Positions 11,903-33,168 of a stretch of DNA of 64,000 bases are shown piece after piece. Numbering within the stretch: position 1 is the first letter of the stretch; every line of letters starts with the position of its first letter. Position numbers and translations under genes: made by a program. The DNA is from Escherichia coli (GTDB taxonomy: Bacteria > Pseudomonadota > Gammaproteobacteria > Enterobacterales > Enterobacteriaceae): the NCBI RefSeq assembly GCF_013122565.1, contig NZ_CP053258.1, one strand, 5' to 3'. The notes beneath the pieces are model-generated. The model saw nothing but the letters and a program-made list of their open reading frames with translations, did no database searches and had not been told where the DNA came from.

Positions 11903-11903
11903 A

Positions 11904-14592: not shown

Positions 14593-14706
14593 TTACGCCA
14601 ATGTGTAATTTGGCCCATTCTCATCGTTATTCGCCCATTTGCCCACATGCACAGTACGGGCTGCACGCTACGCTAATGACATCAATACTGTGATGTGGAG
14701 CAAATC

Positions 14707-15483: not shown

Positions 15484-15502
15484 TTCGGAGATAAAGAGTG
15501 TT

Positions 15503-16456
15503 ATGCGCCCGCTAACTGTTGCCATTATCGCCGTTGCCGGTTTTAGTCCTTTTCACCTTTCCGTACCGTTTATCGTATTTAGCGAAAAAATGGCGGAGAA
15601 AAAACACTTTCACGTAATTATCTGCGCTGAAAAGCCGGGAAACGTGGACTCTGCCGATGGGTTTTCCGTAACCGCCACCCATGACTATACCGCAGTCATC
15701 CAGGCGGATATTGTGATAATTCCTTACTGGGGAACAATTACACAAAAACCGCCACAAAAACTGCTGGAAGCCTTAACGACCGCACGGGATAACGGCGCAC
15801 AGATTGTCGGGCTTTGCCTGGGCACGTTTGTGCTCGGCTATGCAGGTTTACTGAAAAATAAGCGTGCCGCCACGCACTGGGAGTTCGAGCGTGAATTTCA
15901 GGCACGTTTTCCACAAACACATCTGGATATTAACGCGTTGTACGTAGACGATGACGGCATTATTACCTCTGCCGGTACTGCCGCGGCGCTGGATTGCTGT
16001 TTGTATATTGTTCGGCAACATTTTGGCAGCGACTATGCTAACCATATTGCCCGACGGATGGTCGTACCGCCATATCGCACCGGCGGTCAGGCGCAGTTTA
16101 TTGAGCAACCAGTGCCGAAAAATACCCATGATGAACGCATAAACCTCCTGCTGGATTACCTGCGGCAAAACATTGCGCAACAGCATGATCTCGACTCGCT
16201 GGCGCAGCGAGTAATGATGAGTCGCCGCACATTAACTCGCCATTTTATGAAAGCGACCGGTTCGAGTATCGCCGAATGGCTCATTACTGAACGCTTACGC
16301 CGTAGCCAGGAACTGTTGGGATCCAGTCAGTTGCCCGTTGAGCGGATAGCGGCTGAGGTGGGTTTTCTCTCACCTGTGACCTGGCGTCAGCATTTTAAAT
16401 CTCACTTCGGCGTCAGCCCCGCCGAATGGCGCAAAACCTTTCGCGGTATGGCATGA
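15503..16456 (+). CDS. GlxA-family transcriptional regulator (DJ-1/PfpI domain + AraC-type HTH)
   Basis: 317 aa; N-terminal class I glutamine amidotransferase-like fold, C-terminal AraC HTH (RRTLTRHFMKATG ... SPAEWRK); 20 nt after MBL gene, probably co-transcribed. Confidence 0.8.
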   Translation: MRPLTVAIIAVAGFSPFHLSVPFIVFSEKMAEKKHFHVIICAEKPGNVDSADGFSVTATHDYTAVIQADIVIIPYWGTITQKPPQKLLEALTTARDNGAQIVGLCLGTFVLGYAGLLKNKRAATHWEFEREFQARFPQTHLDINALYVDDDGIITSAGTAAALDCCLYIVRQHFGSDYANHIARRMVVPPYRTGGQAQFIEQPVPKNTHDERINLLLDYLRQNIAQQHDLDSLAQRVMMSRRTLTRHFMKATGSSIAEWLITERLRRSQELLGSSQLPVERIAAEVGFLSPVTWRQHFKSHFGVSPAEWRKTFRGMA

Positions 16457-16650
16457 TAGCGCGTGCAGGAAAGTCAATTCAGGTTCCCCACTAACCAACT
16501 GAATTGTGGGAAGATTGCTTTATCAGGCTTAATACAAGCCATTCGGTAACAGTTTTTCTCGCTCCCGCCCTGTCACTCCTGTTGATTGTGCAATGTTACA
16601 AAAATGCTTCATTTTTGTTGATTTTCTACTGTGATCAATTCGGCAATATC

Positions 16651-16703
16651 CTCTCCTGAATTTCACCAGACTACTTCCAGCCCATTCGCAATATCAGGAG
16701 AGA
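16651..16703 (+). promoter_or_regulatory. Leader inverted repeat (ctctcctga ... tcaggagag) overlapping the Shine-Dalgarno of the acyl-CoA ligase gene
   Basis: 9-bp perfect inverted repeat; both arms preceded by gcaatatc; 3' arm contains the AGGAG RBS 4 nt upstream of ATG 16707. Confidence 0.35.
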
Positions 16704-16706
16704 CAA

Positions 16707-18263
16707 ATGAGCAGCACCTCCGCCGACTTCCAGAATTTGTATCAGGCACTGAGTCACAGCGCCGCCCGCAGTCCGAATGACCTGGCGCTGGCGTTTGAGG
16801 ATCAGCGCTATATGTACCGCGATTTTCACCTGCGGGTACAGCGGACGATGGCGCAACTTGACCGCAGCTGGTCGTTGCGCAAAGGCGACCGGATCCTGCT
16901 GGCCCTGGGGAATCATCCCGCTTTTTGCGAAGTCCTTTTTGCGGCAGTTGGTCTGGGCATCGAGGTGGTGCCTTTCAGCACTAAGCTTAAGCAGGCCGAG
17001 AGCGAGGAGCTGGTGGGTCATATCGCGCCCCAGGTCGTGCTGTTCGATGCAACCGTGCAGGACTGGCTGAAAAACACCCCCAACGCGCGCGCTGTTTCAC
17101 TTAGTGAATGGCTGGCGCTTTCTCTTCCCGAACCGCTGACTCGCCTGCCGGCCCAGGTTAACCGCGACGACACGGCGGTGATGATGTTTACCTCAGGTAC
17201 TACCGGGGAGCCAAAAGGCGCGATTATCACCCACCATAATCTGCTCTGCGCGATTGACGCCTATACGCAAAAACTGAATCTGACCGCTGCGGATAGCACT
17301 ATTCTGGCGGTGCCTATTTATCACATCACTGGCCTGTCGGCGCTGCTGGCGCTGTTTATTAGCCTTGGTGCGAGCATCTGGCTGCAACACCGGTTCAATG
17401 CCTCGCAGGTGATCAATACCCTGCGCGAGCAAAATATTACCTTTCTGCACGGCTCGCCAACCATCTTTATCCTCCTATGTCAGGCGGCACGCGAAATAAG
17501 CGACAGCCATCCGGGCGATTTTCCCGCGCTACGGACGATCGCTTGCGGTGCGGGCCACCTGAGCGACGGCCTTATCAAAGAGTTAAAAACGCTGTTCCCG
17601 CATACGGCAATTCAGCCGATCTACGGGCTCACCGAAACGACCTCACCCGCGACGATTTTTCCAGGCGACGTCTGGGGTAGCGAGAAATGCGGCAGTTCGG
17701 GCCAGGCGATCCCCGGCCTCACGATTACGATTCGCAACGATCGCCAGCAACGTCTCCCTGCCGGACAAATTGGGCATATCTGGCTGAAAGGCGATGTGGT
17801 CATCCGCGAGTACTGGCAGCACAGCGAAAGACGCCCGAGCTGCGATGAACAGGGCTGGTTTTGTACGGGTGATTTGGGCTATCTCGACGACGAAGGCTGG
17901 CTGTACATCAAAGACCGCAGTAAAGACATGATCAATCGCGGTGGGGAGAAAATTTACTCTCTGGAGCTGGAAAACATTCTCTCTACCTATCGGGGAGTAC
18001 GGGAAGTCGCCGTGATCCCGGCCCCCAGCCCGCTCTATGGTGAAGAGCCGGTGGCGTTTATCGTGCCGGACGGTCAACACCACCTGACAAGCGAAGAGAT
18101 CCTCTGCTGGCTGAAGGTCAAAATTGCCCGCTTTAAGCTTCCGGCACGCATTATTTTCACCCGCATTTTACCCCGTACCCATAACGGAAAAGTGAGCAAA
18201 CAACAGCTCAAAACACGCCTTGCGGAATCGATCATCACGTTATCAACGGAGGATAAACAGTGA
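16707..18263 (+). CDS. AMP-dependent synthetase / acyl-CoA ligase (class I adenylate-forming enzyme)
   Basis: 518 aa; AMP-binding motif TSGTTGEPKGA, downstream GYGLTE-like and adenylation core motifs. Confidence 0.85.
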   Translation: MSSTSADFQNLYQALSHSAARSPNDLALAFEDQRYMYRDFHLRVQRTMAQLDRSWSLRKGDRILLALGNHPAFCEVLFAAVGLGIEVVPFSTKLKQAESEELVGHIAPQVVLFDATVQDWLKNTPNARAVSLSEWLALSLPEPLTRLPAQVNRDDTAVMMFTSGTTGEPKGAIITHHNLLCAIDAYTQKLNLTAADSTILAVPIYHITGLSALLALFISLGASIWLQHRFNASQVINTLREQNITFLHGSPTIFILLCQAAREISDSHPGDFPALRTIACGAGHLSDGLIKELKTLFPHTAIQPIYGLTETTSPATIFPGDVWGSEKCGSSGQAIPGLTITIRNDRQQRLPAGQIGHIWLKGDVVIREYWQHSERRPSCDEQGWFCTGDLGYLDDEGWLYIKDRSKDMINRGGEKIYSLELENILSTYRGVREVAVIPAPSPLYGEEPVAFIVPDGQHHLTSEEILCWLKVKIARFKLPARIIFTRILPRTHNGKVSKQQLKTRLAESIITLSTEDKQ

Positions 18264-19852
18264 GTAACAAATTTATCAGCGCCCATGAAGCGGCGCAGTT
18301 AGTCACCAGCGGCGATACCGTCTGCACCGTCGGGATGACGCTTATCGGCGCGGCAGAATCCATTTTAGCGGCCATTGAAGCGCGCTTTCTGACCGAGGGC
18401 ACACCGCGCGATCTGACATTGTTACATGCCGCAGGGCAAAGCGATCGGCAGCGCGGCATTCAGCACTTCGCCCATCAGGGAATGGTGACGCGGCTTATCG
18501 GTTCGCACTGGGGCCTTGCGCCGCGCTGGATGGCGATGATCAACAACAACGAAGTGGAAGCCTGGTGCCTGCCGCAGGGGCAGATCGTCCATCTTTATAG
18601 CGCGATGGCCGCCGGACTTACAGGGCGACTCTCCCCCGTCGGGCTGGGTACTTTTGTCGATCCGCGCATAGAAGGCGGGCGGATGAATGCCCGTACCCGC
18701 GAAAAGCCAGATCTGATTGAGCATGTGATGTTTCGCGGCGACGAGTATCTGTTTTATCCAGCCATTCCCCTGAACGTCGTCATTGTGCGCGGAACTCATG
18801 CCGATGAAGACGGCAACCTCACTACGGATGAAGAGGTCATGAAACTGGAAGTTCTGCACGCGGTTCTCGCCGCCAGACGTTACGGGGCGAAGGTGCTGGC
18901 GCAGGTGAAATATCGTGTGGCGAAAGGTTCGCTGCATCCGAAAAGCGTCACCGTTCCTGGCAACCTGATCGATGCCATTGTGGTGTGCAACGAGCCGCAG
19001 ACGGATCACCGCCAAAGCTCCAGTTGGGACTTCGATCCGGCACTGTGCGGCGATATCCAGTTGCCCGCAGCGCAGAATGCGCCGCTGCAACTCGACCTGC
19101 GCAAACTTATCGGGCGGATCGCCTGCCGCTATCTGACGCCCGGCTGTGTCATCAATCTTGGCACCGGGATCCCCAATGATGTGATTGGCGCCATCATCCA
19201 TGAAGAACAGCTCGGCGAGCAAGTCACCATCACCGTTGAATCGGGGATCTACGGTGGGCAGCAGGCGGGCGGCGTTGATTTTGGTATCGGTCGTAATCTG
19301 AGCGCGATGATAAGTCACCAGGATCAAATGCTCTATTACAACGGCGCGGGCGTCGATATCACCTTTATGGGTGCCGGCGAGATGGATCCGCACGGTCACG
19401 TCAACGCCACGCGGCTCGGTGCATCCTGCCCCGGCGCAGGCGGTTTTATCGACATCACGCAGAATGCCCGCCACGTCGTGTTCTGCTCCTCTTTTACCGC
19501 CAAAGGGCTGGAGATTGCCTGTGAAAATGGGCAGTTGCATATCCTGCGCGAAGGCGAGGTACGTAAGTTCGTCGCCGGGGTTAATCAGATTTCTTATAAC
19601 GGTGAGCTGGCCCGCAACAAAGGCCAAACCATGCATTACGTCACCGAACGGGCAGTGTTCGAACTACGTCCGCAGGGACCGGTGCTGACGGAAATCGCCC
19701 CCGGCATCGATCTTGAGCGCGACATCCTGGCACATATGGATTTTCGTCCGGCTATCGCCGGGGATCTTAAGGTAATGGACAGCCGTTTATTTGCCCCGCA
19801 GCCCTGTGGCCTGGCGGAACATCTGTCCCACAATTCATCCTCTGACTCATAA
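18260..19852 (+). CDS. Family I CoA-transferase, fused alpha/beta (YdiF-like acyl-CoA:acetate/3-ketoacid CoA transferase)
   Basis: 530 aa; architecture and ESG glutamate region resemble E. coli YdiF; GTG start overlaps ligase stop by 4 nt with GGAGGA SD. Confidence 0.8.
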   Translation: MSNKFISAHEAAQLVTSGDTVCTVGMTLIGAAESILAAIEARFLTEGTPRDLTLLHAAGQSDRQRGIQHFAHQGMVTRLIGSHWGLAPRWMAMINNNEVEAWCLPQGQIVHLYSAMAAGLTGRLSPVGLGTFVDPRIEGGRMNARTREKPDLIEHVMFRGDEYLFYPAIPLNVVIVRGTHADEDGNLTTDEEVMKLEVLHAVLAARRYGAKVLAQVKYRVAKGSLHPKSVTVPGNLIDAIVVCNEPQTDHRQSSSWDFDPALCGDIQLPAAQNAPLQLDLRKLIGRIACRYLTPGCVINLGTGIPNDVIGAIIHEEQLGEQVTITVESGIYGGQQAGGVDFGIGRNLSAMISHQDQMLYYNGAGVDITFMGAGEMDPHGHVNATRLGASCPGAGGFIDITQNARHVVFCSSFTAKGLEIACENGQLHILREGEVRKFVAGVNQISYNGELARNKGQTMHYVTERAVFELRPQGPVLTEIAPGIDLERDILAHMDFRPAIAGDLKVMDSRLFAPQPCGLAEHLSHNSSSDS

Positions 19853-19863
19853 GGAAATTAACT

Positions 19864-20598
19864 ATGAAACTAGCCAGTAAAACGGCCATTGTCACCGGCG
19901 CCGCGCGCGGTATCGGATTTGGTATTGCCCAGGTGCTTGCGCGAGAAGGTGCCCGAGTCATCATCGCCGACCGCGACCCACATGGCGAAGCCACTGCCGC
20001 ATCCCTGCGCGAACAGGGTGCCCAGGCGCTGTTTATCAGCTGCAATATTGGCGATAAAACGCAGGTTGAAGCGCTGTTTTCCCAAGCCGAAGAAGCGTTT
20101 GGCCCGGTGGATATTCTGGTTAATAACGCCGGTATCAACCGCGACGCCATGTTGCACAAACTCACTGAAGCGGACTGGGACACGGTGATTGACGTCAATA
20201 TGAAGGGCACGTTTCTCTGTATGCAGCAGGCGGCAATCCGTATGCGCGAGCGCGGCACGGGCCGCATTATCAATATCGCTTCCGCAAGCTGGCTTGGCAA
20301 CGTTGGGCAAACCAACTATTCGGCGTCAAAAGCGGGCGTGGTCGGGATGACTAAAACCGCCTGTCGCGAACTGGCAAAAAAAGGGGTCACGGTTAACGCC
20401 ATCTGCCCCGGTTTTATTGATACCGATATGACGCGCGGCGTCCCGGAAAACGTCTGGCAAATCATGATCAACAAAATTCCTGCGGGCTACGCCGGGGAGG
20501 CGAAAGACGTTGGCGAGTGTGTGGCGTTTCTGGCGTCCGACGGCGCGCGCTATATCAATGGTGAAGTGATTAATGTCGGCGGCGGCATGGTTCTGTAA
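19864..20598 (+). CDS. Short-chain dehydrogenase/reductase (FabG-like 3-oxoacyl / 3-hydroxyacyl oxidoreductase)
   Basis: 244 aa; TGAARGIG cofactor motif, catalytic YSASK (YxxxK); AAGGA SD. Confidence 0.85.
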   Translation: MKLASKTAIVTGAARGIGFGIAQVLAREGARVIIADRDPHGEATAASLREQGAQALFISCNIGDKTQVEALFSQAEEAFGPVDILVNNAGINRDAMLHKLTEADWDTVIDVNMKGTFLCMQQAAIRMRERGTGRIINIASASWLGNVGQTNYSASKAGVVGMTKTACRELAKKGVTVNAICPGFIDTDMTRGVPENVWQIMINKIPAGYAGEAKDVGECVAFLASDGARYINGEVINVGGGMVL

Positions 20599-20608
20599 GG
20601 GGAAAAAG

Positions 20609-21799
20609 ATGATACAGGCTAATGATATTGTGGTGGTCAGCGGCGTCCGTACCGCTATTGGCACGTTTAATGGCAGTCTTAAGCATACCCACCAGCATGA
20701 CCTGGGGGCAGCGGTCATTCGCGAAGCGGTCAGCCGCGCCGGACTTGCGCCGAAAGATATCGATGAAGTGATCGTCGGCAACGTTGGGCAAATCGCCGAA
20801 AGCGGTTTTATCGCCCGCATCTGCCAGCTTCGGGCGGGGATCCCGCAGGAAAGTACCGCGTATTCGGTTAACCGCCAGTGCGGCTCCGGTCTACAGGCCC
20901 TGGCAGACGGCATGATGCAGCTACAAAGCGGTCAGGCCGATGTCGTCGTCGCCTGCGGAACTGAAAATATGACCCAACTGCCCTACTACCTGCGTAAAGC
21001 GCGGGATGGCTATCGCATGGGTCATGGCGAGCTGGAAGATGGTCTGATTTCTATCCTCACCTGGCCTGAAGGGCCTTATCACAACGGCATCACGGCGGAA
21101 AACGTCGCGCAACAGTTCGGGATCACCCGCGAAGCGATGGACGATTTCGCCTGGTCAAGCCAGCAGAAGGCGCTGAAAGCCATCGCGCAGGATCGCTTTC
21201 GCGAACAGATCCTGCCCCTTGAAGTGCCGGACGGCAAAAAAGCCTCCCGCCTGTTCGCGGTTGATGAACACCCGCGTGACACCCCACGCGAAAAGCTCGC
21301 CACGCTGCGACCGGCATTTAAAGCCGACGGCGTGGTGACGGCAGCCAACTCATCCGGCATTAACGACGGTGCGGCTGCGCTGGTGATGATGACCCGTCAG
21401 CAGGCGGAAAAGCGTGGCTTAACCCCACTAATGCGGATCCGCGGCTGGGCGGTTGCCGGCTGCGGCGCAGATATCATGGGCTTTGGCCCTGCTCCCGCGA
21501 CCCGGCGTCTGATGGACCGTCTCAATATGGATGTCCACGCCATAGATTTAATTGAACTCAATGAGGCCTTCGCCGCCCAGGCGCTGGCGGTGATGAACGA
21601 TCTGCGTCTCGATCCGGCCCGCGTCAACGTTAATGGCGGCGCAATCGCCCTCGGACACCCGGTGGGTGCCAGCGGTGCGATCTTGCCGGTCAAACTCATG
21701 TATGAAATGGCGCGCAGCGGTGCACGTACCGGTCTGGTCACGATGTGCATCGGCGGCGGTCAGGGAATTTCTATGCTGTTCGAGCGCGAAGGCGCTTAG
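20609..21799 (+). CDS. Thiolase (acetyl-CoA C-acyl/acetyltransferase)
   Basis: 396 aa from MIQANDIVVVSGVRTAIG; active-site NRQCGSGLQA, C-terminal GHPVGASG and CIGGGQG motifs; track ORF begins 12 codons earlier. Confidence 0.85.
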   Translation: MIQANDIVVVSGVRTAIGTFNGSLKHTHQHDLGAAVIREAVSRAGLAPKDIDEVIVGNVGQIAESGFIARICQLRAGIPQESTAYSVNRQCGSGLQALADGMMQLQSGQADVVVACGTENMTQLPYYLRKARDGYRMGHGELEDGLISILTWPEGPYHNGITAENVAQQFGITREAMDDFAWSSQQKALKAIAQDRFREQILPLEVPDGKKASRLFAVDEHPRDTPREKLATLRPAFKADGVVTAANSSGINDGAAALVMMTRQQAEKRGLTPLMRIRGWAVAGCGADIMGFGPAPATRRLMDRLNMDVHAIDLIELNEAFAAQALAVMNDLRLDPARVNVNGGAIALGHPVGASGAILPVKLMYEMARSGARTGLVTMCIGGGQGISMLFEREGA

Positions 21800-21807
21800 G
21801 AAAAGAC

Positions 21808-21830
21808 GGCCCGAAGTGGGGCTTCGGGCC
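21808..21830 (+). other. GC-rich hairpin (ggcccgaag tgggg cttcgggcc) between thiolase and MFS genes; no U-tract
   Basis: 9-bp perfect stem with 5-nt loop 9 nt after thiolase stop. Confidence 0.4.
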
Positions 21831-21934
21831 GAGCGTCGTTCGGGCCAGTACCCGGCGACAACCTATGAGCTGACGAACGGGATCGTGTCGATCCCGGCAA
21901 GGCTTCTGACCACGAATACGGGGAAATAATAACC

Positions 21935-23272
21935 ATGTCCGCAATAAATGAAAAGGTGATAAACGGGACGCAGCTACAACGCACCCATAAAAAGATCTAC
22001 CGCCATTTGATGCCGCTACTTATCGTGGCGTACATCATAAGCTTTATTGATCGTACCAATATCGGCATGGCGAAAGCGACCATGTCGGTGGATATCGGCC
22101 TTTCCGCAACCGCATTCGGCCTCGGAGCCGGGTTGTTTTTTCTCACCTACGCAGTGCTGGAGATCCCAAGCAACCTGTTTTTAACCCGAATTGGCGCGCG
22201 GCGCTGGATCGCCCGCATCATGATCACCTGGGGAATCATCTCCTGCGGCATGGCGTTTGTCACCGGACCTACGTCATTTTACGTGATGCGCTTATTGCTC
22301 GGCGCCGCCGAAGCGGGGCTGTATCCGGGCATTATCTACTACCTGACCCTTTGGTTTGGTCGCGAAGAGCGCGCGAAAGCCACCGGCCTTTTCCTGCTGG
22401 GGGTCTGTCTGGCCAATATTATCGGTGCGCCGCTGGGCGGATTGTTATTAAACCTTGATGGTATGTCCGGCTGGCACGGCTGGCAGTGGATGTTTTTTAT
22501 CGAAGGGCTGCCTGCGATACTGCTGGCGTTTGTCGTCTGGCGCAAGCTGCCGGATAAACCTGCCGATGCTCGCTGGCTGGACAGCAACGACGTGCAGGCC
22601 ATTAACGCGGTGCTGGAGAAAGAAGCGCAAGAGACGCGTCATACACCAAACCGCTTCTCCCTCAAAACCGCACTCACCACCCGCGTATTTTTGTTGCTGG
22701 TGCTGATTTACTTTACCCACCAGTTTTCAGTTTACGGCCTGAGTTATTTTCTGCCGGGGATCATTGGTAGCTGGGGCCAGCTTACGCCGCTGCAGATAGG
22801 TCTGCTGACCGCTATCCCGTGGATTGCAGCGGCGGCTGGCGGCATCCTGCTGCCGCGTTTCGCCCGGACGGAACAGCGTTCACGCAGAATGCTGATGGCC
22901 GGATACCTGGTCATGGCCACCGGCATGGCGATTGGTGCAATTTCCGGTCACGGCGTTGCGCTGCTTGGCTTCTCGCTGGCCGCTTTCATGTTCTTCGCTA
23001 TGCAATCCATCATCTTTAACTGGCTCCCCTCGATCATGAGCGGGCATATGCTGGCGGGTAGCTTCGGCCTGCTTAACTGCCTTGGTCTGTGCGGAGGCTT
23101 TCTCGGGCCGTTTATTCTCGGTGCGTTTGAGGATCGAACCGGCGCGGCAACGTCAGGTTTATGGTTCGCCGTCGGGCTGTTGATTGTCGGCGCGTTGGTA
23201 TCTCTGTTCATCAAAGGTTCGTCATCCCTGGGCCATGCTTCGGCAAAACAGGCCTGTGGCGAAAAAGCTTAA
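21935..23272 (+). CDS. MFS transporter, anion:cation symporter (ACS) family-like (hydroxy-acid/aldonate-type permease)
   Basis: 445 aa, 12 predicted TM segments, FIDRTNIG motif typical of ACS-family permeases. Confidence 0.75.
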   Translation: MSAINEKVINGTQLQRTHKKIYRHLMPLLIVAYIISFIDRTNIGMAKATMSVDIGLSATAFGLGAGLFFLTYAVLEIPSNLFLTRIGARRWIARIMITWGIISCGMAFVTGPTSFYVMRLLLGAAEAGLYPGIIYYLTLWFGREERAKATGLFLLGVCLANIIGAPLGGLLLNLDGMSGWHGWQWMFFIEGLPAILLAFVVWRKLPDKPADARWLDSNDVQAINAVLEKEAQETRHTPNRFSLKTALTTRVFLLLVLIYFTHQFSVYGLSYFLPGIIGSWGQLTPLQIGLLTAIPWIAAAAGGILLPRFARTEQRSRRMLMAGYLVMATGMAIGAISGHGVALLGFSLAAFMFFAMQSIIFNWLPSIMSGHMLAGSFGLLNCLGLCGGFLGPFILGAFEDRTGAATSGLWFAVGLLIVGALVSLFIKGSSSLGHASAKQACGEKA

Positions 23273-23285
23273 TTAAGAGGTTCTT

Positions 23286-24164
23286 ATGCGCATCGAAGTC
23301 TTACTGGATTTAAAAACACGGCTCGGTGAAAGCCCGGTCTGGGATGTCGAACAACAGCGCCTTTGGTGGGTGGACAGCCTTGATGGACGCCTGTTTGCCT
23401 GTAATGCGCAGGGCGGCGCGATTAAGAGCTGGGATGTACGGCAGAAAATTGGCTCTTTTGCCCTACGCCAGAACGGGGAAGGCGCGGTGGTGGCGCTTCA
23501 AAATGGCGTTCATCTGCTCGACTTCGCCAGCGGCGAGCTGACGCTGCTGCACCACCCGGAAGCGGACCGCCCCTTTAACCGACTTAACGATGGCAAAGTC
23601 GATCGTCAGGGACGCTTTCTGTTCGGGTCAATGGATATGCGCGAGGAGGAGCCGAGCGGCGCGCTGTATCGCCTGGACGCCGATCTATCACTGCACGTAC
23701 TGAAGAAAAATATCATCGTCTCCAACGCCCCCTGCTGGAGTCCATCCGGCGAGACGTTTTATTTTGCCGATACCTGGTCGGGCAAAATCCGCGCCTGGGA
23801 TTACAACACCGCGACCGGAGATATCTCCGCAGAACGGCTCTTTTGCCATGTCGATCGCAGCGAAGGCGGCGCAGCGGATGGTGCTACCGTGGACAGCGAA
23901 GGGTGTCTGTGGAATGCGCTGGTCTACGCGGGCAAGTTAGTACGCTACACGCCGGAAGGGCAGATTGATCGCATCATTGAGATGCCGGTGAAAAAAGTCA
24001 CCAGTGTGATGTTCGGCGGCGAAAATCTCGACGTGCTGTACGTCACTTCAATGGCGCAGCCGCCCCTGGCGCGTTTCCCGGAAGATAATCAGTTGCGTGG
24101 CAGCCTGTTCGCCATTTACGACCTGGGCGTGACCGGCGTTGCGGAACGGCGTTTTGCCGGATAA
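23286..24164 (+). CDS. SMP-30/gluconolactonase/LRE-family lactonase (regucalcin-like beta-propeller)
   Basis: 292 aa; family motifs SPVWD, NDGKVDRQGRF, DGATVDSEGCLW; AAGAGG SD. Confidence 0.8.
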   Translation: MRIEVLLDLKTRLGESPVWDVEQQRLWWVDSLDGRLFACNAQGGAIKSWDVRQKIGSFALRQNGEGAVVALQNGVHLLDFASGELTLLHHPEADRPFNRLNDGKVDRQGRFLFGSMDMREEEPSGALYRLDADLSLHVLKKNIIVSNAPCWSPSGETFYFADTWSGKIRAWDYNTATGDISAERLFCHVDRSEGGAADGATVDSEGCLWNALVYAGKLVRYTPEGQIDRIIEMPVKKVTSVMFGGENLDVLYVTSMAQPPLARFPEDNQLRGSLFAIYDLGVTGVAERRFAG

Positions 24165-24254
24165 GCGAACTTTCGGTTCGCCGCGATAACCATAATACGC
24201 GGCGAACTGACTCTGACCCTGACACATGGCGGCGCGCCGTGGAGTAAAAAAACT

Positions 24255-25592
24255 ATGACAACACTCAATCAAATACCTGCCAGCAAACGCGATGGAAAAA
24301 AGCGGCTGATCCACCGTTTCTCCTGGGTTTCATTGCTGGTTTGCTGGCTTATCTGGGTGCTCAACGCCTACGATCGCGAGATGATCCTGCGCCTTGGCCC
24401 GGTGATTTCTAAGGAGTTCTCGCTCTCGCCGGAACAATGGGGGAACGTCGTAGCACTGATTATGGTGGCCCTTGCGGTGCTGGATATCCCGGGCGCCATC
24501 TGGAGCGATCGTTACGGATCAGGCTGGAAGCGAGCACGCTTTCAGGTGCCGCTGGTGCTGGGCTACACCGCGTTGTCTTTTATCTCCGGGATAAAAGCTG
24601 TCAGCCACGGTCTGACGACCTTTGTATTGCTGCGCGTTGGGGTCAACCTCGGGGCTGGCTGGGGCGAGCCCGTCGGCGTCAGCAACACCGCAGAGTGGTG
24701 GCCGAAAGAGAAACGCGGTTTCGCGCTGGGGGTGCATCATACCGGTTATCCCATTGGCGCACTGCTAAGCGGTGTCGTGGCAAGCCTGGTACTTTCCACA
24801 TTTGGCGAAGGTAACTGGCGCTACTGTTTCCTGCTGGCGCTGATCGTCGCTATTCCGCTGATGCTCTTCTGGGCGAAATATTCCACCGCCGCCCGAATCA
24901 ACACGCTTTATCAGCATATCGATAGTCAGGGAATGACGCGCCCGGCGACGCAGGAAAGCAATCATGTTGCGAAAGGCGAAGGGCTGAAAACGTTTTTACG
25001 TACCCTGCGCAATCGCAATATTTCGCTGACGGCAGGCAATACTCTGCTGACGCAGATTGTCTATATGGGCATTAACGTTGTGCTGCCGCCGTATCTTTAT
25101 CATGTCTCCGGCCTGTCGCTGGCAGCATCCGCCGGGATGAGTATTATCTTTACGCTTACTGGTACTCTGGGGCAGATAATTTGGCCCTGGCTGTCCGACA
25201 GTTTTGGTCGTAAACGTACCCTGATTGTCTGCGGTCTGTGGATGAGTATCGGCATTGCACTGTTCTATTTCGCCACGAATATGCCGCGCCTTATCGCCAT
25301 TCAGCTATTTTTTGGACTGGTGGCAAACGCCGTGTGGCCTATCTATTACGCAATGGCCTCGGACTCCGCCGAAGAACGCGCCACCTCTACTGCAAACGGA
25401 ATTATCACCACGGCAATGTTTATTGGCGGTGGCATTTCGCCATTGCTCATGGGCTGGCTAATTCAGCTTGGTGGGGGTTGGGAAAACCCGGCGGGTTATA
25501 TCTACGCCTTCTTTACGATGGCGGGATGTGCGCTGCTGGGGATGCTGTTGCAGTTAATGACCAGTGATAAAACGCCGCGCAAAGCGCATTAA
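24255..25592 (+). CDS. MFS transporter (second permease of the cluster)
   Basis: 445 aa polytopic protein with MFS loop motif (SDRYGSGWKR), GGAG SD. Confidence 0.75.
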   Translation: MTTLNQIPASKRDGKKRLIHRFSWVSLLVCWLIWVLNAYDREMILRLGPVISKEFSLSPEQWGNVVALIMVALAVLDIPGAIWSDRYGSGWKRARFQVPLVLGYTALSFISGIKAVSHGLTTFVLLRVGVNLGAGWGEPVGVSNTAEWWPKEKRGFALGVHHTGYPIGALLSGVVASLVLSTFGEGNWRYCFLLALIVAIPLMLFWAKYSTAARINTLYQHIDSQGMTRPATQESNHVAKGEGLKTFLRTLRNRNISLTAGNTLLTQIVYMGINVVLPPYLYHVSGLSLAASAGMSIIFTLTGTLGQIIWPWLSDSFGRKRTLIVCGLWMSIGIALFYFATNMPRLIAIQLFFGLVANAVWPIYYAMASDSAEERATSTANGIITTAMFIGGGISPLLMGWLIQLGGGWENPAGYIYAFFTMAGCALLGMLLQLMTSDKTPRKAH

Positions 25593-25605
25593 TTCAGGAG
25601 AACGC

Positions 25606-25728
25606 ATGAAGATTGTTATCGCGCTGGATCCTTTTAAGAGTCGGCTCCTCGCAGACGCTGCGGAGAATGTTATACGAACCTTTGTGAGCGGACGACGCAA
25701 AGAGAAACATAAGCGGATGACCTTATGA
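25606..25728 (+). pseudogene. 40-codon ORF resembling the N-terminus of glycerate kinase (GarK/GlxK-like remnant), translationally coupled (ATGA) to the CdaR-family gene
   Basis: Translation MKIVIALDPFKSRLLADAAENVIRTF... resembles the MKIVIAPDSFKESLSA N-terminus of glycerate kinases (recalled from memory); strong AGGAG SD; stop overlaps cdaR-like ATG. Confidence 0.35.
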
Positions 25729-26882
25729 TTATTACGACGGCGCTGGCTAATGAAATTGTCACCAGGGCGATGGCAATCATTCATCATAACGTGAACGTAA
25801 TTGACCATTATGGACAGATCATTGCCTCAGGTGAACGGCATCGTATCGGCGAGCAACATGAAATCGCCCGTGAGGTGATACGCACGGGTAAACGCATTTG
25901 TATTAACAACGCTGCTGAAGCCGCGCGTTTTAAGAATGTGCTTCCGGGTATTAATCATCCCATTATCTATGACGATCGCGTGGTGATGGTTGTGGGTATC
26001 AGCGGCGATCCCGCAGCGATCAGCCGCTATGCTGAACTGGCGGTGCTCACCGCCGAGCTGCTGGTCCGCCAGGCCGCCGAGATGCAAGAAACCAACTGGC
26101 GACAGCGCCTGCGCGATACCTTGTTTTGTCAGTATCTTGAGCAAGGTACCTCGCCCGCCGGGCAGGAATCACTCCATCGCCTGCTCGAAACTGGCTTCGC
26201 TTTTGATGCGCCGCTGGTACCAGTCGTCGTATCAGTGCAGGTTGAGCAGCACCAGCTAAGCGAAATTTTAAGTACGCTGCTGCGGGAGTTCTCCCGGTTG
26301 GCCGGGGTAAGAGACGTTATTTTGCTCGGCAGCAATGAGATTTTACTCCTCAATACGCTGAGCGAACCGCAGGAAACATTGCTGCGCAGCATTGAGTTTG
26401 TTCTTAGCAATCAGATCAGTCATTACCATATCGGGATAGGCGTACAGGCGGATAGCGCCCCGGATATTCGCGAGGCCATCAGATTCGCCCGTTCGGTGAT
26501 TGAAGTTGGGAGCAAAGTGCAGCCACAGCGGCAGATCTACTATTTTCGCGAAATGGCCATGCTCTGCCTGTTCCGGGTACTGGAAGACAGCTATATGGTG
26601 AATTTTTTTATCAATAATGTCCGCCAGTTGCTTGAACATGATTCTGGCGAAGTGCTGCTGGATACCCTGAGCAGCTTTATTGCCAATAACGCAGAGCTGG
26701 GTAAAACATCGCTGCTGTTGGGTATTCACCGCAATACGCTCACCTATCGTCTACAGCAGATAAAAAAGCATATCCAGCTCGATCCGATGGTCTTCACCGA
26801 CCTGACGCAACTGGCGGTGTCGGTACACTGCTATCGTCGGCAGAACCCGCGCCAGAGCGAATGGATCGATAGCTTAAGTTAA
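25725..26882 (+). CDS. CdaR/SdaR-family (sugar diacid regulator-like) transcriptional regulator
   Basis: 385 aa; N-terminal diacid-regulator domain and C-terminal PucR-type HTH; overall architecture like E. coli CdaR. Confidence 0.8.
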   Translation: MIITTALANEIVTRAMAIIHHNVNVIDHYGQIIASGERHRIGEQHEIAREVIRTGKRICINNAAEAARFKNVLPGINHPIIYDDRVVMVVGISGDPAAISRYAELAVLTAELLVRQAAEMQETNWRQRLRDTLFCQYLEQGTSPAGQESLHRLLETGFAFDAPLVPVVVSVQVEQHQLSEILSTLLREFSRLAGVRDVILLGSNEILLLNTLSEPQETLLRSIEFVLSNQISHYHIGIGVQADSAPDIREAIRFARSVIEVGSKVQPQRQIYYFREMAMLCLFRVLEDSYMVNFFINNVRQLLEHDSGEVLLDTLSSFIANNAELGKTSLLLGIHRNTLTYRLQQIKKHIQLDPMVFTDLTQLAVSVHCYRRQNPRQSEWIDSLS

Positions 26883-26930
26883 AACGCGATGGGGTCAGTT
26901 CATTATTTCAAAGAGCATAAGTACAGGAAC

Positions 26931-26972
26931 AAATGTCGGATGCGCCACTGGGCACATCCGACAATCTTTTAT
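26931..26972. terminator. Bidirectional hairpin terminator between the cdaR-like gene and cynX
   Basis: tgtcggatgcgcc actg ggcacatccgaca stem (one mismatch) flanked by T-rich tracts on both strands; REP-like sequence. Confidence 0.6.
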
Positions 26973-27003
26973 TGTTCCATTGTCTCGCAAAACAAGCGTC
27001 GCA

Positions 27004-28158
27004 TCATGCCTCTTTGACCCACAGCTGCGGAAAACGTGCTGGTGCAAAACGCAGGGTTATGATCATCAGCCCAACGACGCACAGCGCATGAAATACCCAG
27101 TCCATCAGGTAATTGCCGCTGATACTACGCAGCACGCCAGAAAACCACGGGGCAAGCCCGGCGATGATAAAACCGATCCCCTGCATAAACGCCACCAGCT
27201 TGCCAGCAATAGCAGGTTGCACAGAGTGATCGAGCGCCAGCAGCAAACAGAGCGGAAATGCGCCGCCCAGACCTAACCCACACACCATCACCCACAATAC
27301 CGGCAATTGCAGCGGCAACCAGATAAAGCCGCAGAACCCCACCAGTTGTAACACCAGCGCCAGCATTAACAGTTTGCGCCGATCCTGATGGCGAGCCATA
27401 GCAGGCATCAGCAAAGCTCCTGCGGCTTGCCCAAGCGTCATCAATGCCAGCAAGGAACCGCTGTACTGCGCGCTGGCACCAATCTCAATATAGAAAGCGG
27501 GTAACCAGGCAATCAGGCTGGCGTAACCGCCGTTAATCAGACCGAAGTAAAGGCCCAGCGTCCACGCGCGGGGAGTGAATACCACGCGAACCGGAGTGGT
27601 TGTGGTCTTGTGAGAAGAGGCGACCTCGCGGGCGCTTTGCCACCACCAGGCAAAGAGCGCAACAACGGCAGGCTGCGCCCACCAGGCGAGTGTTTGATAC
27701 CAGGTTTCGCTATGTTGAACTAACCAGGGCGTCAGGGCGGCACCAAGTCCACCGCCGCCCATCAGAGCCGCGGACCACAGCCCCATCACCAGTGGCGTGC
27801 GCTGCTGAAACCGCCGTTTAATCACCGAAGGCATCACCGCCTGAATGATGCCGATCCCCACCCCACCAAGCAGTGCGCTGCTAAGCAGCAGCGCACTTTG
27901 GGGGTAAAGCTCACGCATCAATGCACCGACGGCAATCAGTAACAAACTGATGGCGACGCTGCGACGTTCGCTGACATGCTGATGAAGCCAGCTTCCGGCC
28001 AGCGCCAGCCCGCCCATGGTAACCACCGGCAGAGCGGTCAACAGGGCAGCCACGCTAAAGCTCATTCCGCTTGCCTGGCGCAATTGCGGTAGCAGTGGCC
28101 CGACGGAGGTGAGCAGTGGTCGCATATTAAGACCAATCAGCACCAGAACCAGCAGCAT
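27004..28158 (-). CDS. cynX: Cyanate MFS transporter
   Basis: 384 aa from MLLVLVLIGLNMRPLLTSVGPLL; follows cynS. Confidence 0.9.
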   Translation of the reverse strand: MLLVLVLIGLNMRPLLTSVGPLLPQLRQASGMSFSVAALLTALPVVTMGGLALAGSWLHQHVSERRSVAISLLLIAVGALMRELYPQSALLLSSALLGGVGIGIIQAVMPSVIKRRFQQRTPLVMGLWSAALMGGGGLGAALTPWLVQHSETWYQTLAWWAQPAVVALFAWWWQSAREVASSHKTTTTPVRVVFTPRAWTLGLYFGLINGGYASLIAWLPAFYIEIGASAQYSGSLLALMTLGQAAGALLMPAMARHQDRRKLLMLALVLQLVGFCGFIWLPLQLPVLWVMVCGLGLGGAFPLCLLLALDHSVQPAIAGKLVAFMQGIGFIIAGLAPWFSGVLRSISGNYLMDWVFHALCVVGLMIITLRFAPARFPQLWVKEA

Positions 28159-28190
28159 CGTGAACGTCTTTTGATGGTTACGCATGGCTG

Positions 28191-28679
<489 letters not shown>

Positions 28680-28691
28680 TTAAAAATAAGG

Positions 28692-29351
28692 TTACGCTGC
28701 GGTTGGCTGGCGTAGCGGTATGGCACAAACGCGAGGATTAGCGGCCAGTGGCACAAACTGGCGGGTTGCGCCGTCAAACGCTGCGATGCTGCCGCTTTCA
28801 ATGTCGTAGACCCAGCCGTGCAGGGCGATCCGCCCCTCTTCGAGCGCCAGGCGCACCGATGGATGAGTTTGCAAATTAGCCAACTGAGCAATGACGTTTT
28901 CACGTACCATCGCCGCAGCTTTTGACGGTAAATCGGAATGCGGGCGCGCCTCATTAACGACGCGGGCTGAATCGGCATAACGCAGCCAGTGGGAGACGGC
29001 AGGCATATGGTCCATGCACTGACAGTTGGCAATGGCGGTCATCGCGCCACAGTTGGAATGACCGCAAATCACAATGTCAGATACCCGAAGCGCAGCGACG
29101 GCATACTCCACCGAAGCAGAAACGCCACCGGGTTCCGGCCCGTAGGAAGGGACAATATTACCTGCGTTGCGAATAACGAACAGATCGCCAGGCTCACGTT
29201 GCGTCACCAGCTCAGGGACCAGACGGCTGTCGGAGCAGGAGATAAAAAGGGTGCGCGGGCTTTGCTGTGTCGCCAGCTGTTTAAATAAGGCTTCCCGCTT
29301 CGGAAATGCCTCGCGCTGGAATTTAAGGAATCCATCAATAATCTCTTTCAC
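28692..29351 (-). CDS. cynT: Beta-class carbonic anhydrase
   Basis: 219 aa, beta-CA motifs CSDSR and HSNCGA. Confidence 0.93.
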
Positions 29352-29460
29352 CGTTAACCTCTGTCTGTCTCTGGAATGAGAGGCAGACTACTCGCCGATT
29401 GTCATAAGGTAAAAGTCTCATTTATGATGAGTTCTATTGGATTTACTTATAGGTTGGCGA
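29352..29460. promoter_or_regulatory. cynR / cynTSX divergent promoter region (LysR-type control region)
   Basis: 109-bp AT-rich spacer between divergent cynT and cynR starts. Confidence 0.5.
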
Positions 29461-30360
29461 ATGCTCTCTCGACATATCAATTATTTTCTTGCCGTGGCTG
29501 AACATGGCAGCTTCACCCGTGCCGCCAGTGCGTTGCACGTCTCTCAGCCTGCGCTTTCCCAGCAGATTCGCCAGTTAGAGGAGAGTTTAGGCGTGCCGCT
29601 GTTTGACCGTAGCGGGCGAACAATTCGTCTCACTGATGCAGGAGAAGTCTGGCGACAGTACGCCAGCCGGGCGTTACAGGAACTGGGAGCGGGTAAACGG
29701 GCGATTCATGATGTTGCCGATCTGACGAGAGGATCGCTGCGTATCGCCGTCACCCCCACCTTTACGAGCTACTTTATCGGCCCCTTAATGGCGGATTTCT
29801 ATGCGCGCTATCCCGGCATCACGCTCCAGCTACAGGAAATGTCGCAGGAGAAAATCGAGGATATGCTTTGCCGCGACGAGTTGGACGTTGGGATTGCCTT
29901 CGCGCCTGTGCATTCGCCGGAGCTGGAGGCAATTCCTTTACTGACAGAAAGTTTAGCGTTAGTCGTGGCGCAACATCATCCGCTGGCAGTCCATGAACAG
30001 GTGGCGTTGAGTCGCTTGCATGATGAAAAACTGGTACTGCTCAGCGCGGAATTTGCCACCAGAGAGCAAATTGACCACTACTGCGAGAAAGCGGGGCTGC
30101 ATCCACAGGTGGTCATTGAGGCGAACTCAATTAGCGCGGTTCTGGAGCTGATTCGCCGCACTTCCCTTTCCACATTGTTGCCAGCAGCGATTGCCACACA
30201 ACATGACGGGCTTAAAGCTATATCCCTTGCCCCACCGTTACTGGAGAGAACGGCGGTTTTGTTGCGGCGGAAAAATAGCTGGCAGACAGCCGCCGCGAAG
30301 GCATTTTTACACATGGCGTTGGAAGAATGTGCGGATGTTGGCGGGCATGAATCACGGTAG
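29461..30360 (+). CDS. cynR: LysR-family activator of the cyn operon
   Basis: 299 aa from [41 protein letters not shown]. Confidence 0.9.
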
Positions 30361-30381
30361 CCACTGACACAGGTCAGTGGC
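30360..30381. terminator. Bidirectional hairpin terminator between cynR and codA
   Basis: gccactgac acag gtcagtggc perfect 9-bp stem in the 39-bp spacer between convergent genes. Confidence 0.6.
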
Positions 30382-30399
30382 TCTTCAACGCAGAGGAAA

Positions 30400-31683
30400 T
30401 TACCGTTTGTAATCGATGGCTTCTGGCTGCTCCAGATATACGGTGGTTTGTGCCGGTTGTGTACTGGCAATCACCTTGCCGCCCCGTACCGAATAACGTA
30501 CCGGAACCTGACGGCGCAGCGCATCAAATCCATTTTCAGCCGGCAGGATAATCAGGTTGGCGCTGTTTCCGGCGGCAATGCCGTAATCCTGCAAATTCAA
30601 CGTCCTGGCGCTGTGGTGGGTGATTAAATTCAGGCCATCGTTAATCTGCCCGTAGCCCATCAGCTGGCAAACATGCAGCCCCATATGGAGTACTTGCAGC
30701 ATATTCGCCGTTCCCAGCGGATACCACGGATCGAAGACATCATCGTGACCAAAGCAGACGTTAATGCCGGACTCCAGCATCTCTTTAACGCGCGTGATGC
30801 CGCGACGTTTTGGATAGGTATCGAAACGTCCTTGCAGATGGATATTGACCAGCGGGTTGGCGACAAAGTTAATACCGGACATTTTCAGCAAGCGGAACAG
30901 GCGTGAGGTATACGCCCCGTTATAGGAGTGCATTGCCGTGGTGTGGCTGGCGGTAACTCGCGCGCCCATGCCTTCACGGTGCGCCAGGGCAGCAACGGTT
31001 TCGACAAAGCGCGACTGTTCGTCATCGATCTCATCACAGTGAACGTCGATGAGACGGTCGTATTTTTGCGCCAGGGCGAAGGTTTTATGCAGCGACTCCA
31101 CGCCGTATTCGCGGGTAAATTCAAAATGCGGAATCGCCCCCACTACATCTGCCCCTAAGCGTAGCGCCTCTTCCAGCAACGCTTCACCGTTGGGATACGA
31201 CAAAATCCCTTCCTGCGGGAAGGCAACGATTTGCAGATCAATCCACGGCGCGACTTCCTGCTTCACTTCCAGCATTGCTTTTAGCGCAGTCAGCGTTGCA
31301 TCCGAAACATCGACATGGGTACGCACATGCTGAATACCGTTGGCAATCTGCCATTTCAGCGTTTGCCAGGCGCGTTGTTTCACATCGTCATGGGTTAATA
31401 ACGCTTTGCGCTCGGCCCAGCGTTCAATGCCTTCAAACAGCGTGCCGGACTGATTCCAGTTCGGTTGTCCGGCGGTTTGCGTGGTGTCCAGGTGAATATG
31501 TGGCTCCACAAACGGCGGTATAACTAAACCTTGTTCGGCATCCAGGCTGTTTTCAGTTATGGCCATCACGCCGGATTGCGCATCAATGGCGCTGATTTTT
31601 CCGTCGTGAAGATGAATCTGCCACAGCCCCTCTTTGCCAGGTAAACGGGCGTTACTAATTGTTTGTAAAGCGTTATTCGACAC
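30400..31683 (-). CDS. codA: Cytosine deaminase
   Basis: 427 aa beginning at GTG (VSNNALQTI...); amidohydrolase metal ligands HIHLD; overlaps codB stop. Confidence 0.9.
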
Positions 31684-32932
31684 TGTTAGCCTCCACATGC
31701 GTCATTGCTGCTGTCGTTTTACGATTCAAAATCGGGTTAATGATCAGATAGCTCAGCGCGCCACCTAATACCGCGTTGACCGGAACAATTCCCGGTAACC
31801 AGTGGCCTGCGGCAATCCCCAGCGCGACCGCCAGAATCGCCACCCAATTGACACTCATCATACGCGTGGTCGCAAAGTGCTCATAGCGGCGACGGTTCAT
31901 CAGATAGTCGGCGATGATTACGCCCCCTACCGGAGGAATAGCTGCCGAAAGGAAGGTCAGCCAGCCGACAAAATTGTTATACAGCCATAATGCGCAGACC
32001 GTACCGATAATACCGTTGATTACCGAAAGGGTTTTGCTCGACATACCGGTAATGTTGGCGAAACCTAAACCCGACGCATAGAGTGCGTTATCGTTGGTGG
32101 TCCAGATATTCAGCCCCAGCACCACAATCGCAGGCAGCAGCAGGCCCTGAGCAATCATCACATCAGAGATATCCGCCATCCCCAGTGCCGCCGCGCCCGC
32201 TGCACCGAAAATAAACATCAACGAGTTGCCGAGGAAAAAGGCCACCATCGCCACCAGCACCGCCAGTTTGGCATTGCGACCAAACCGGACAAAGTCAGCG
32301 GTGAGCGTACCCGCACTGATAAATGACCCCACAACCAGCGCCAGTGCGACATTGAAATCTAGCGGTTGTGCAGGAACGACCGCTTTTAAGGCGTCCAGAC
32401 CGCCCATGCCGTTAACGGCCAGCCACACGGAATAACCACCAAGGCAGGCGATGGCCGGAACCGCAATCACCGAAAGAACGGTCAGCGCCGAAATACCAAA
32501 GAACACGGTGACGGTCATCAGTAAACCGGAAACGGCAATCAGCAAATTAATATCCAGCCCAGTTGCCTTGCCCACCGGAATGGCAAACATCGCCACGCCA
32601 ACGCCAAACCAGCCAACCTGGGTGCCGCCCAGCAGCAGTGAAGGCAGCCATGAGCCTTTAACACCAAACGAGAAGCGAGCAAGAAGATGGGTGGTCAGGC
32701 CGGTTTTTGCGCCAATGTAACCAAGAAATGAAGTGTAAATACCGAGGAGAAGATTACCGATGAGAACTGCGAGGAAGAAATCATGATAGCTAAGACCGGT
32801 TCCGAGAGTGCCGCCGGTCCACATACTGGCGGAAAAGAAGGTTAATCCCAGCATGACGAACGTCAATGCCAATACCCCTTTCCGCGCCGACTGCGGGACT
32901 GGCCCCTGGCTAAAGTTGTTATCTTGCGACAC
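31673..32932 (-). CDS. codB: Cytosine permease (NCS1 family)
   Basis: 419 aa polytopic transporter immediately upstream of codA. Confidence 0.92.
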
Positions 32933-32998
32933 GAAATTCCCCCTTTTTGCTGTTTGAAACCCAAAAAATCCGCCGCATTCTATTCATCTGAAGATAAA

Positions 32999-33016
32999 AA
33001 GCAATCGTTTTCGTGG
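32999..33016. promoter_or_regulatory. PurR-box-like operator upstream of codB
   Basis: aagcaatcgttttcgt matches the PurR consensus ANGCAAACGTTTNCNT with one mismatch, about 70 bp upstream of codB start. Confidence 0.45.
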
Positions 33017-33087
33017 GGAAATATATTTTTTATATGAATGAGTGCAAAAAGGTGGGGGAAAAATTATCGGTGTAAAAACAGTGGGCA

Positions 33088-33165
33088 GGCATAATAAGAC
33101 GCGGTAAGCGTCGCATCAGGCATCTGCGCATGGTGTCGGATGCGCCAGGCGACGCATCCGACAAT
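33088..33165. repeat. REP/BIME element
   Basis: ataagacgcggtaagcgtcgcatcaggcatctgcgcatggtgtcggatgcgccaggcgacgcatccgaca palindromic units between codB promoter and prpE end. Confidence 0.8.
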
Positions 33166-33168
33166 AAC

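Follow-up and report, generated by a model that had tools for sequence, protein, structure and literature searches.

A probable uptake and ring-opening module in a Klebsiella-type 2-deoxy-D-ribonate gene cluster at the lac locus of an Escherichia coli strain

Within a window of 64,000 nucleotides (nt) of Escherichia coli DNA (NCBI RefSeq assembly GCF_013122565.1, contig NZ_CP053258.1; all positions given below refer to this window), a gene for a lactonase of the SMP-30/gluconolactonase family lies between the genes for two MFS permeases, hereafter MFS1 and MFS2. We conclude, with considerable confidence, that this trio forms the module for uptake and ring opening in a CoA-dependent 2-deoxy-D-ribonate pathway of the Klebsiella type, which was acquired horizontally. 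Note that the system is already known, including the position of the lactonase between or beside two MFS transporters and the proposed import of deoxyribonate or its lactone by these transporters. A preliminary description of the same DNA had treated the cluster as an open puzzle; this view did not hold, since mutant fitness data had already identified the cluster and its substrate in 2019. Its general reasoning, namely uptake followed by ring opening ahead of the CoA enzymes, agrees with the proposal made for the orthologues, in which the two MFS proteins bring deoxyribonate, or the corresponding lactone, into the cell and ring opening by the lactonase precedes the CoA-dependent steps (Price et al. 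2019, mSystems 4:e00297-18, PMC6365646).

Correspondence with the Klebsiella deoxyribonate cluster

In Klebsiella michiganensis M5al, the cluster comprises the genes for a CoA synthetase (BWI76_RS23695), a CoA-transferase (BWI76_RS23700), a dehydrogenase of beta-hydroxyacyl-CoA (BWI76_RS23705), a thiolase (BWI76_RS23710), an MFS transporter (BWI76_RS23715), a lactonase (BWI76_RS23720), a second MFS transporter (BWI76_RS23725), and a glycerate kinase (BWI76_RS23730), and the fitness of mutants showed that growth on deoxyribonate requires it, whereas none of 92 other conditions does (PMC6365646). The mean fitness on deoxyribonate was -4.0 for RS23715 and -1.4 for RS23725, and the phenotype of the lactonase mutant was mild (-1.3 and -1.1); the Klebsiella lactonase is 70% identical to PS417_07255, a putative deoxyribonolactonase of Pseudomonas simiae, and both Klebsiella MFS genes have P. 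simiae counterparts of more than 50% identity (PMC6365646).

The window contains the same seven genes, from the ligase through the second MFS gene, co-directional and in the published order. Sequences of K. michiganensis were closely related where compared (MFS1, 96%, P0146; ligase, 94%, P0171), the identities to Klebsiella were 94% for the CoA-transferase, 96-97% for the SDR, and 94-96% for MFS2, and all eight proteins of the cluster in the window, which ends with a CdaR-type regulator, were 93-97% identical to their orthologues in K. pneumoniae, K. oxytoca or K. grimontii, with identical order. The regulator ends the cluster in these three species as it does here. The K. pneumoniae locus has the identical gene order at 89% DNA identity and, in addition, a glycerate kinase gene between the MFS2 and regulator genes. 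The beta-oxidation-like enzymes beside this glycerate kinase suggest that a 2-deoxy-3-hydroxy C5 acid is split into C2 and C3 units, and thus point to 2-deoxy-D-ribonate as the substrate. The cluster in the window differs from that of M5al in its E. coli host, in its position at the lac locus, and in its glycerate kinase gene, which is cut to a remnant of 118 nt; at the DNA level, the closest Klebsiella sampled is only approximately 90% identical.

The lactonase, the permeases and their distribution

The lactonase matched the Pfam family SGL (PF08450) with an E-value of 1.3e-80 over model positions 1-245 of 246, and its AlphaFold2 model (pLDDT 88.9, pTM 0.89) is a six-bladed beta-propeller with 24 strands, both of which bear out the SMP-30/gluconolactonase/LRE beta-propeller assignment made earlier. 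By sequence, the closest solved structures were the Caulobacter xylonolactonase 7plb (E-value 1e-41) and then human and mouse SMP30; by structure, Foldseek gave TM-scores of 0.92-0.94 to 7plb/7plc and 0.91-0.93 to 3g4e/4gn7. Residues E15, R99, N101, N147, and D198 aligned with E18, R101, N103, N154, and D204 of human SMP30 and with the equivalent residues of the xylonolactonase, and were invariant across 20 homologues, down to 67% identity. In SMP30, E18, N154, and D204, together with R101 and N103, are the divalent-metal ligands and catalytic residues; the metal-binding residues are thus conserved on alignment. The six-bladed propeller and the same metal/active-site constellation of Glu, Asn, Asn, and Asp are common to the lactonase, Caulobacter crescentus XylC (7plb/7plc), and mammalian SMP30/regucalcin (3g4e, 4gn7). 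However, the identity to these proteins is only 32-34%, the presumed substrate here is a 2-deoxy-pentonolactone and theirs is xylono- or gluconolactone, and the pathway context differs. The N-terminus of the lactonase (MRIEVLLDLKTRLGESPVW) has no hydrophobic segment, and none of its 19-residue windows reached a Kyte-Doolittle hydropathy of at least 1.3; the protein is thus taken as cytoplasmic, without signal peptide, and a periplasmic lactonase was ruled out. From its sequence, we regard it as a putative 2-deoxy-D-ribonolactonase of the SMP-30/gluconolactonase family.

Both permeases matched the Pfam family MFS_1. For MFS1, the best models were TIGR02332 (HpaX; 290 bits, cutoff 615) and TIGR00893 (D-galactonate transporter; 270 bits, cutoff 395); both scores are under the family cutoffs, and these are still by far the top-scoring families. 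MFS1 also aligned over its full length (E-value 1e-18) with DgoT, the D-galactonate:H+ symporter of E. coli (6e9n, TC 2.A.1.14), with D39, R40, and E126 corresponding to DgoT D46, R47, and E133, residues of proton coupling and carboxylate binding, although the similarity to DgoT is low and MFS1 scores below the TIGR00893 cutoff. The two best models and the retained DgoT residues are in accordance with the earlier view of the first permease as ACS-family-like. MFS2 gave weak scores with AAHS/ACS models (approximately 110 bits with any family), retains only the TM1 Asp-Arg pair of the DgoT residues, and belongs to no clear family; its best solved relative was 6e8j (E-value 5e-9), probably the bacterial Spinster homologue HnSpns. 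MFS1 and MFS2 are 21% identical to each other, which rules out that they are recent duplicates. Neither permease classified with drug-efflux families, the models of which scored far below those of importers. The preliminary description had offered two importers, or one importer and one exporter, for the uptake of a lactone or aldonate and of a second related compound. The former agrees with the published proposal and the latter is without support, given that on deoxyribonate the mutants of either orthologous transporter are less fit; the second compound would most simply be the lactone form of the same molecule.

For the distribution of the module, one genome per species was scanned (approximately 100,000 species), and the 80 best loci were kept, with lactonases of 64-96% identity. 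In 77 of the 80 species, deoxyribonate-oxidation genes adjoin the lactonase gene, and the other three loci are truncated contigs; this group of orthologous lactonases thus constantly accompanies deoxyribonate oxidation, irrespective of the cleavage chemistry and of the type of transporter. The CoA-type cluster was found in nine Enterobacterales (three species of Klebsiella, Raoultella, '[Erwinia] mediterraneensis', an Enterobacterales strain, two Franconibacter, and Affinibrenneria), and the other genera included Pseudomonas, Solimonas, Mesorhizobium, Bradyrhizobium, and Aureimonas. The P. simiae type strain (L016) has the lactonase gene (70%), followed by the MFS2 homologue (67%) and then the MFS1 homologue (56%), which reproduces the published figures (PMC6365646). 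The three-gene module is common to the window and to P. simiae WCS417 (PS417_07245-07265). However, the order is MFS1, lactonase, MFS2 in the window; in P. simiae the free acid is oxidised by an SDR and cleaved by a BKACE enzyme, in place of the ligase, SDR, and thiolase present here; and the P. simiae regulator is of the GntR type, not of the CdaR type.

Loci of the P. fluorescens group and of Enterobacterales have both permease types. Those of the P. syringae group and relatives (L023, L028, L030, L031, L035, L037, L046, L083-L085) have the MFS2-type permease only, with no MFS1-type gene in the locus; the Pfam context of one P. syringae-group locus is GntR, SDR, BKACE, SGL lactonase, and MFS. 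The MFS2 type can thus apparently serve alone, despite the stronger phenotype of the MFS1-type gene in Klebsiella. In Mesorhizobium ciceri (L055, 2331-10879) and most other Rhizobiales loci, the lactonase gene (approximately 67%) is retained after genes for an SDR, a 3-hydroxyacyl-CoA dehydrogenase, and a BKACE enzyme, and a sugar-type ABC transporter stands in place of the MFS genes. The BKACE enzyme of the M. ciceri locus scored 545 bits (cutoff 430) with NF053538, '3,5-dioxohexanoate:acetyl-CoA acetone transferase', a name that may be too specific for the enzymes of deoxyribonate-type clusters.

Alternative readings and the proposed pathway

A different assignment would make the three genes a general module for pentonate or hexonate lactones, with a xylono-, arabinono- or gluconolactonase and with permeases that import ordinary aldonates for a non-phosphorylative sugar-acid pathway. 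The nearest solved structure is indeed the Caulobacter xylonolactonase, although at an identity of only 34%; homologues are named 'L-arabinonolactonase', 'sugar lactone lactonase YvrE' or '6-deoxy-6-sulfogluconolactonase' in some database sources, and MFS1 resembles the D-galactonate transporter DgoT. However, the island that carries the cluster is without an aldonate dehydratase, a KDG-type aldolase, and a sugar dehydrogenase; the neighbouring beta-oxidation-type CoA enzymes require a 2-deoxy-3-hydroxy acid; the orthologous lactonase has deoxyribonate-oxidation genes beside it in all but the three truncated loci of the 80; and the Klebsiella cluster has a phenotype on deoxyribonate only (PMC6365646). 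We consider the general aldonate module very improbable.

The state of the glycerate kinase gene raises the question of function. The remnant consists of the first 37 nt of the kinase gene joined to its last approximately 80 nt, by an internal deletion of approximately 1,055 bp; the sequence, aligned with those of K. oxytoca, K. grimontii, and K. pneumoniae, is interrupted at 25641/25644, with 12376-13430 of locus L005 skipped. Franconibacter and Affinibrenneria have the same cluster naturally without the kinase gene, which suggests that cells with another glycerate kinase can do without it. E. coli K-12 has the glycerate kinases GarK and GlxK, so that loss of the kinase gene need not disable the pathway. 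In this E. coli, the cluster might nevertheless be a non-functional relic in decay, acquired by transfer, deprived of its kinase, and unexpressed or useless: besides the deletion, it occurs in one E. coli contig of a 15-billion-protein collection and in none of 5,426 complete genomes, and upstream sigma-70-like promoters were not above chance. Against this, the eight other genes are intact and of Klebsiella length, kinase-free clusters occur in the two genera just mentioned, and the protein identity of 94-97% exceeds the DNA identity of approximately 90%, which is consistent with purifying selection. A relic is, in our estimation, very improbable.

Least probable is a quorum-quenching or xenobiotic lactonase acting on acyl-homoserine lactones (AHLs) or aliphatic lactones, with MFS efflux of the products or of drugs: SMP-30/PON-like propellers are capable of hydrolysing diverse lactones and organophosphates, DFPase, Drp35, and RPA3624 are among the distant fold matches, and both MFS proteins show weak sub-threshold matches to efflux models far down the lists, but the efflux models gave MFS1 18-43 bits against 270-290 for sugar-acid/aromatic-acid importers, MFS1 retains the DgoT symporter residues, the lactonase lacks a signal peptide, the surrounding genes are catabolic, and loss of fitness of both orthologous transporter mutants on deoxyribonate as carbon source is importer behaviour (PMC6365646). 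Gene context and model scores together thus ruled out the xylonolactonase, AHL-lactonase, and efflux readings.

Several points weigh against the deoxyribonate module itself. For neither permease does the score reach the curated NCBIfam cutoff of any named transporter family. The P. simiae lactonase was dispensable in vitro for deoxyribonate formation, and the mild phenotype of the Klebsiella lactonase mutant could reflect a polar effect on the downstream genes (PMC6365646). The orthology was based on the published gene order and on sequences from K. michiganensis other than M5al and from the K. oxytoca complex. The kinase gene of the cluster is deleted, so that the flux hangs on a presumed chromosomal glycerate kinase. 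For this strain, we infer every chemical step, the lactone as the true substrate, and the pairing of the permeases with the forms of the compound.

Under the deoxyribonate assignment, MFS1, and to a lesser degree MFS2, would import deoxyribonate and/or its lactone, MFS1 probably as a DgoT-like sugar-acid:H+ symporter, and the cytoplasmic, metal-dependent SMP-30 lactonase would convert 2-deoxy-D-ribonolactone to the free acid. The ligase would then form deoxyribonyl-CoA from deoxyribonate, the FabG-type SDR would oxidise C3 to give the 3-keto thioester, the thiolase would cleave this into acetyl-CoA plus glyceryl-CoA, and the CoA-transferase would release glycerate from glyceryl-CoA; in our own interpretation, the CoA acceptor in the last step may be a new molecule of deoxyribonate. 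Glycerate would enter glycolysis by phosphorylation; with the kinase gene of the cluster deleted, this step would fall to a glycerate kinase encoded elsewhere on the chromosome (in K-12, GarK or GlxK). A more specific version, in which the MFS-lactonase-MFS module scavenges the lactone as such, with MFS2 for the neutral lactone, MFS1 for the anion, and the lactonase as the true committed step, is conceivable and seems rather doubtful to us. The lactone in that case may come from oxidatively damaged DNA as 2-deoxyribonolactone and, if lactone scavenging were true, the presence of the module in place of lacIZYA would represent a change of niche, with lactose given up for a waste acid derived from the host or from DNA.

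The island at the lac locus

Features of the cluster and of the island are listed in Table 1. The three open reading frames of the module agreed exactly with those of the preliminary description, and the family models confirmed the CoA genes upstream (ligase, CoA-transferase, SDR, and thiolase) and the CdaR-type regulator gene downstream; this account of the locus stood, and what it had missed was the glycerate kinase remnant and the foreign-island nature of the cluster.

Table 1. Positions of the cluster genes, the associated sequence elements and the island in the 64,000-nt window
Feature	Position	Strand	Remarks
Acyl-CoA ligase	16707-18263	+	Putative deoxyribonate-CoA ligase; orthologue of BWI76_RS23695; adenylate-forming enzyme models
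Fused alpha/beta CoA-transferase	18260-19852	+	Orthologue of BWI76_RS23700; NF052271 FadX-like, 3-oxoacid CoA-transferase A/B models
FabG-type SDR	19864-20598	+	Putative 3-hydroxyacyl (deoxyribonyl)-CoA dehydrogenase; orthologue of BWI76_RS23705
Thiolase	20609-21799	+	Orthologue of BWI76_RS23710; TIGR01930, 452 bits (cutoff 240)
Structured spacer, thiolase gene to MFS1 gene	21800-21934	+	11-bp GC-rich hairpin (21807-21831) and two more stems
MFS1, anion:cation-symporter-type permease, 445 aa	21935-23272	+	Orthologue by position of BWI76_RS23715
SMP-30/gluconolactonase-family lactonase, 292 aa	23286-24164	+	Putative 2-deoxy-D-ribonolactonase; orthologue of BWI76_RS23720 and PS417_07255
MFS2, divergent MFS permease, 445 aa	24255-25592	+	Orthologue by position of BWI76_RS23725
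Glycerate kinase gene remnant, 118 nt	25607-25724	+	Alignment to Klebsiella loci
CdaR/SdaR-type regulator	25725-26882	+	Putative cluster regulator; Diacid_rec, GGDEF_2, HTH_30
13-bp hairpin	26934-26963	.	Between the regulator gene and cynX, which converge on a 121-bp gap; resembles a terminator on the cynX strand
Foreign island, 10.5 kb, whole cluster	16484-26985	.	Between GlxA-family regulator gene and cynX, at the lacIZYA position

The eight remaining genes are of full length, without frameshift or premature stop, and equal in length to their Klebsiella orthologues. The CoA-transferase gene starts with GTG, overlapping the stop codon of the ligase gene; the mechanically predicted open reading frame of the thiolase begins at 20573, and the likelier start is the ATG at 20609, which is preceded by a ribosome-binding site and agrees with the Klebsiella annotation. 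The spacing within the enzyme block (an overlap of 4 nt, then gaps of 11 and 10 nt) suggests translational coupling inside the block. A spacer of 135 nt sets the block apart from the MFS1 gene, which is followed by gaps of 13 nt to the lactonase gene and of 90 nt from there to the MFS2 gene. The spacer has a minimum free energy of -56.6 kcal/mol (z -2.6) with its three stems and, lying between the enzyme half and the transport half of the operon, it may serve for processing or stabilisation or as a partial attenuator. On the coding strand, no T-run follows the hairpin at 21807-21831. A scan of the entire window against Rfam gave no family at the gathering score, and thus no known riboswitch or leader. 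The promoter scan of 16300-27100 gave 5 sites against 6.8 expected by chance, and the excess of terminator-like structures in the same region consists mostly of weak intragenic stems; among these structures, the two hairpins at 21807-21831 and at 26934-26963 are the only ones that seem genuine.

The regulator matched Diacid_rec at its N-terminus (PF05651, E-value 4e-41), the PucR-type HTH domain at its C-terminus (PF13556, E-value 5e-12), and GGDEF_2. With NF008550, the equivalog model of E. coli CdaR, it scored 157 bits against a cutoff of 612, and it is thus a CdaR paralogue rather than CdaR. Its gene stands at the end of the cluster in nine of the ten enterobacterial loci examined (L001 and L004-L011, not L003), and the CdaR-type protein probably controls the operon. 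In the exceptional locus, that of the K. pneumoniae type strain ATCC 13883 (L003), the cluster alignment ends within the MFS2 gene (window position 25393; L003 from approximately 12127 onward), and glycerate kinase and CdaR-type genes were not found in its 20.9 kb; the end of the cluster is thus variable within K. pneumoniae. In K. pneumoniae CP125156 (L001, 478-4142), the deoxyribose-phosphate aldolase gene deoC, a DeoR-family regulator gene, and a ribokinase-family gene lie a few kb from the cluster, so that the oxidative and aldolase deoxy-sugar pathways are neighbours in this species. 'Plasmid' records with the cluster were those of K. pneumoniae only, and CP125156 is a 5.37-Mb chromosome mislabelled as a plasmid.

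The island lies exactly at the lacIZYA position, and no lac genes were found within the window. On the left, the break is approximately 10 nt 5' of the start codon of lacI, the promoter of which (…cgcaaaacctttcgcggtatggcatgatagcg…gtcaattcagg) is kept (16430-16556); on the right, it lies between lacA and cynX, and E. coli homology restarts just ahead of the cynX stop codon (26883-26985). The flanks 1-16483 and 26986-39882 are 98.9% and approximately 97.5% identical to E. coli O157:H7, respectively, whereas the DNA of the island interior is 90.7% identical to K. oxytoca, the nearest, and 89.2% to K. pneumoniae; at approximately 90%, either the donor has not been sampled, or the transfer is old or at least not recent. 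None of the 5,426 complete E. coli genomes gave at least 80% coverage of the query 16000-27000, the listed matches covering the E. coli flank only. In the 15-billion-protein collection, the proteins of the only E. coli contig with the island (4.82 Mb) are recorded as QJU25330-QJU25336. The left-junction 40-mer had no match among metagenome contigs, no donor with the cluster already beside cynX or a GlxA-family gene was present among the enterobacterial loci, and a literature search on replacement of the lac locus (lac operon, cynX, mhpR) retrieved nothing relevant.

The host strain appears to be a divergent or mosaic E. coli. In contrast to the mhp/frm side (1-16483) with the above identity to O157:H7, the prpR-betA side (39800-62253) is only 96.4% identical to the best of the 5,426 E. 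coli genomes, a value that seems low within the species and may indicate a cryptic or deep-branching lineage. At 62254-62523, approximately 270 bp of unrelated sequence replace approximately 7.9 kb of E. coli 2021CK-01784; the absent stretch holds ykgH, the lutCBA-like lactate-oxidation genes ykgGFE, and rclRABC for resistance to reactive chlorine.

For annotation, the seven genes recorded under the above accessions, which at present bear generic names such as 'MFS transporter' and 'SMP-30/gluconolactonase/LRE family protein', can take a literature-backed role in 2-deoxy-D-ribonate catabolism. To the biology, the cluster adds little beyond the study of Price et al. (PMC6365646). What is added is that a pathway of plant-associated Klebsiella and Pseudomonas occurs in a natural E. 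coli, and that this strain is a natural example of cassette exchange at the lac operon, a textbook variable locus; we regard both points as a minor note of natural history. Deoxyribonate is excreted in human urine, and the pathway may thus matter in host-associated niches.

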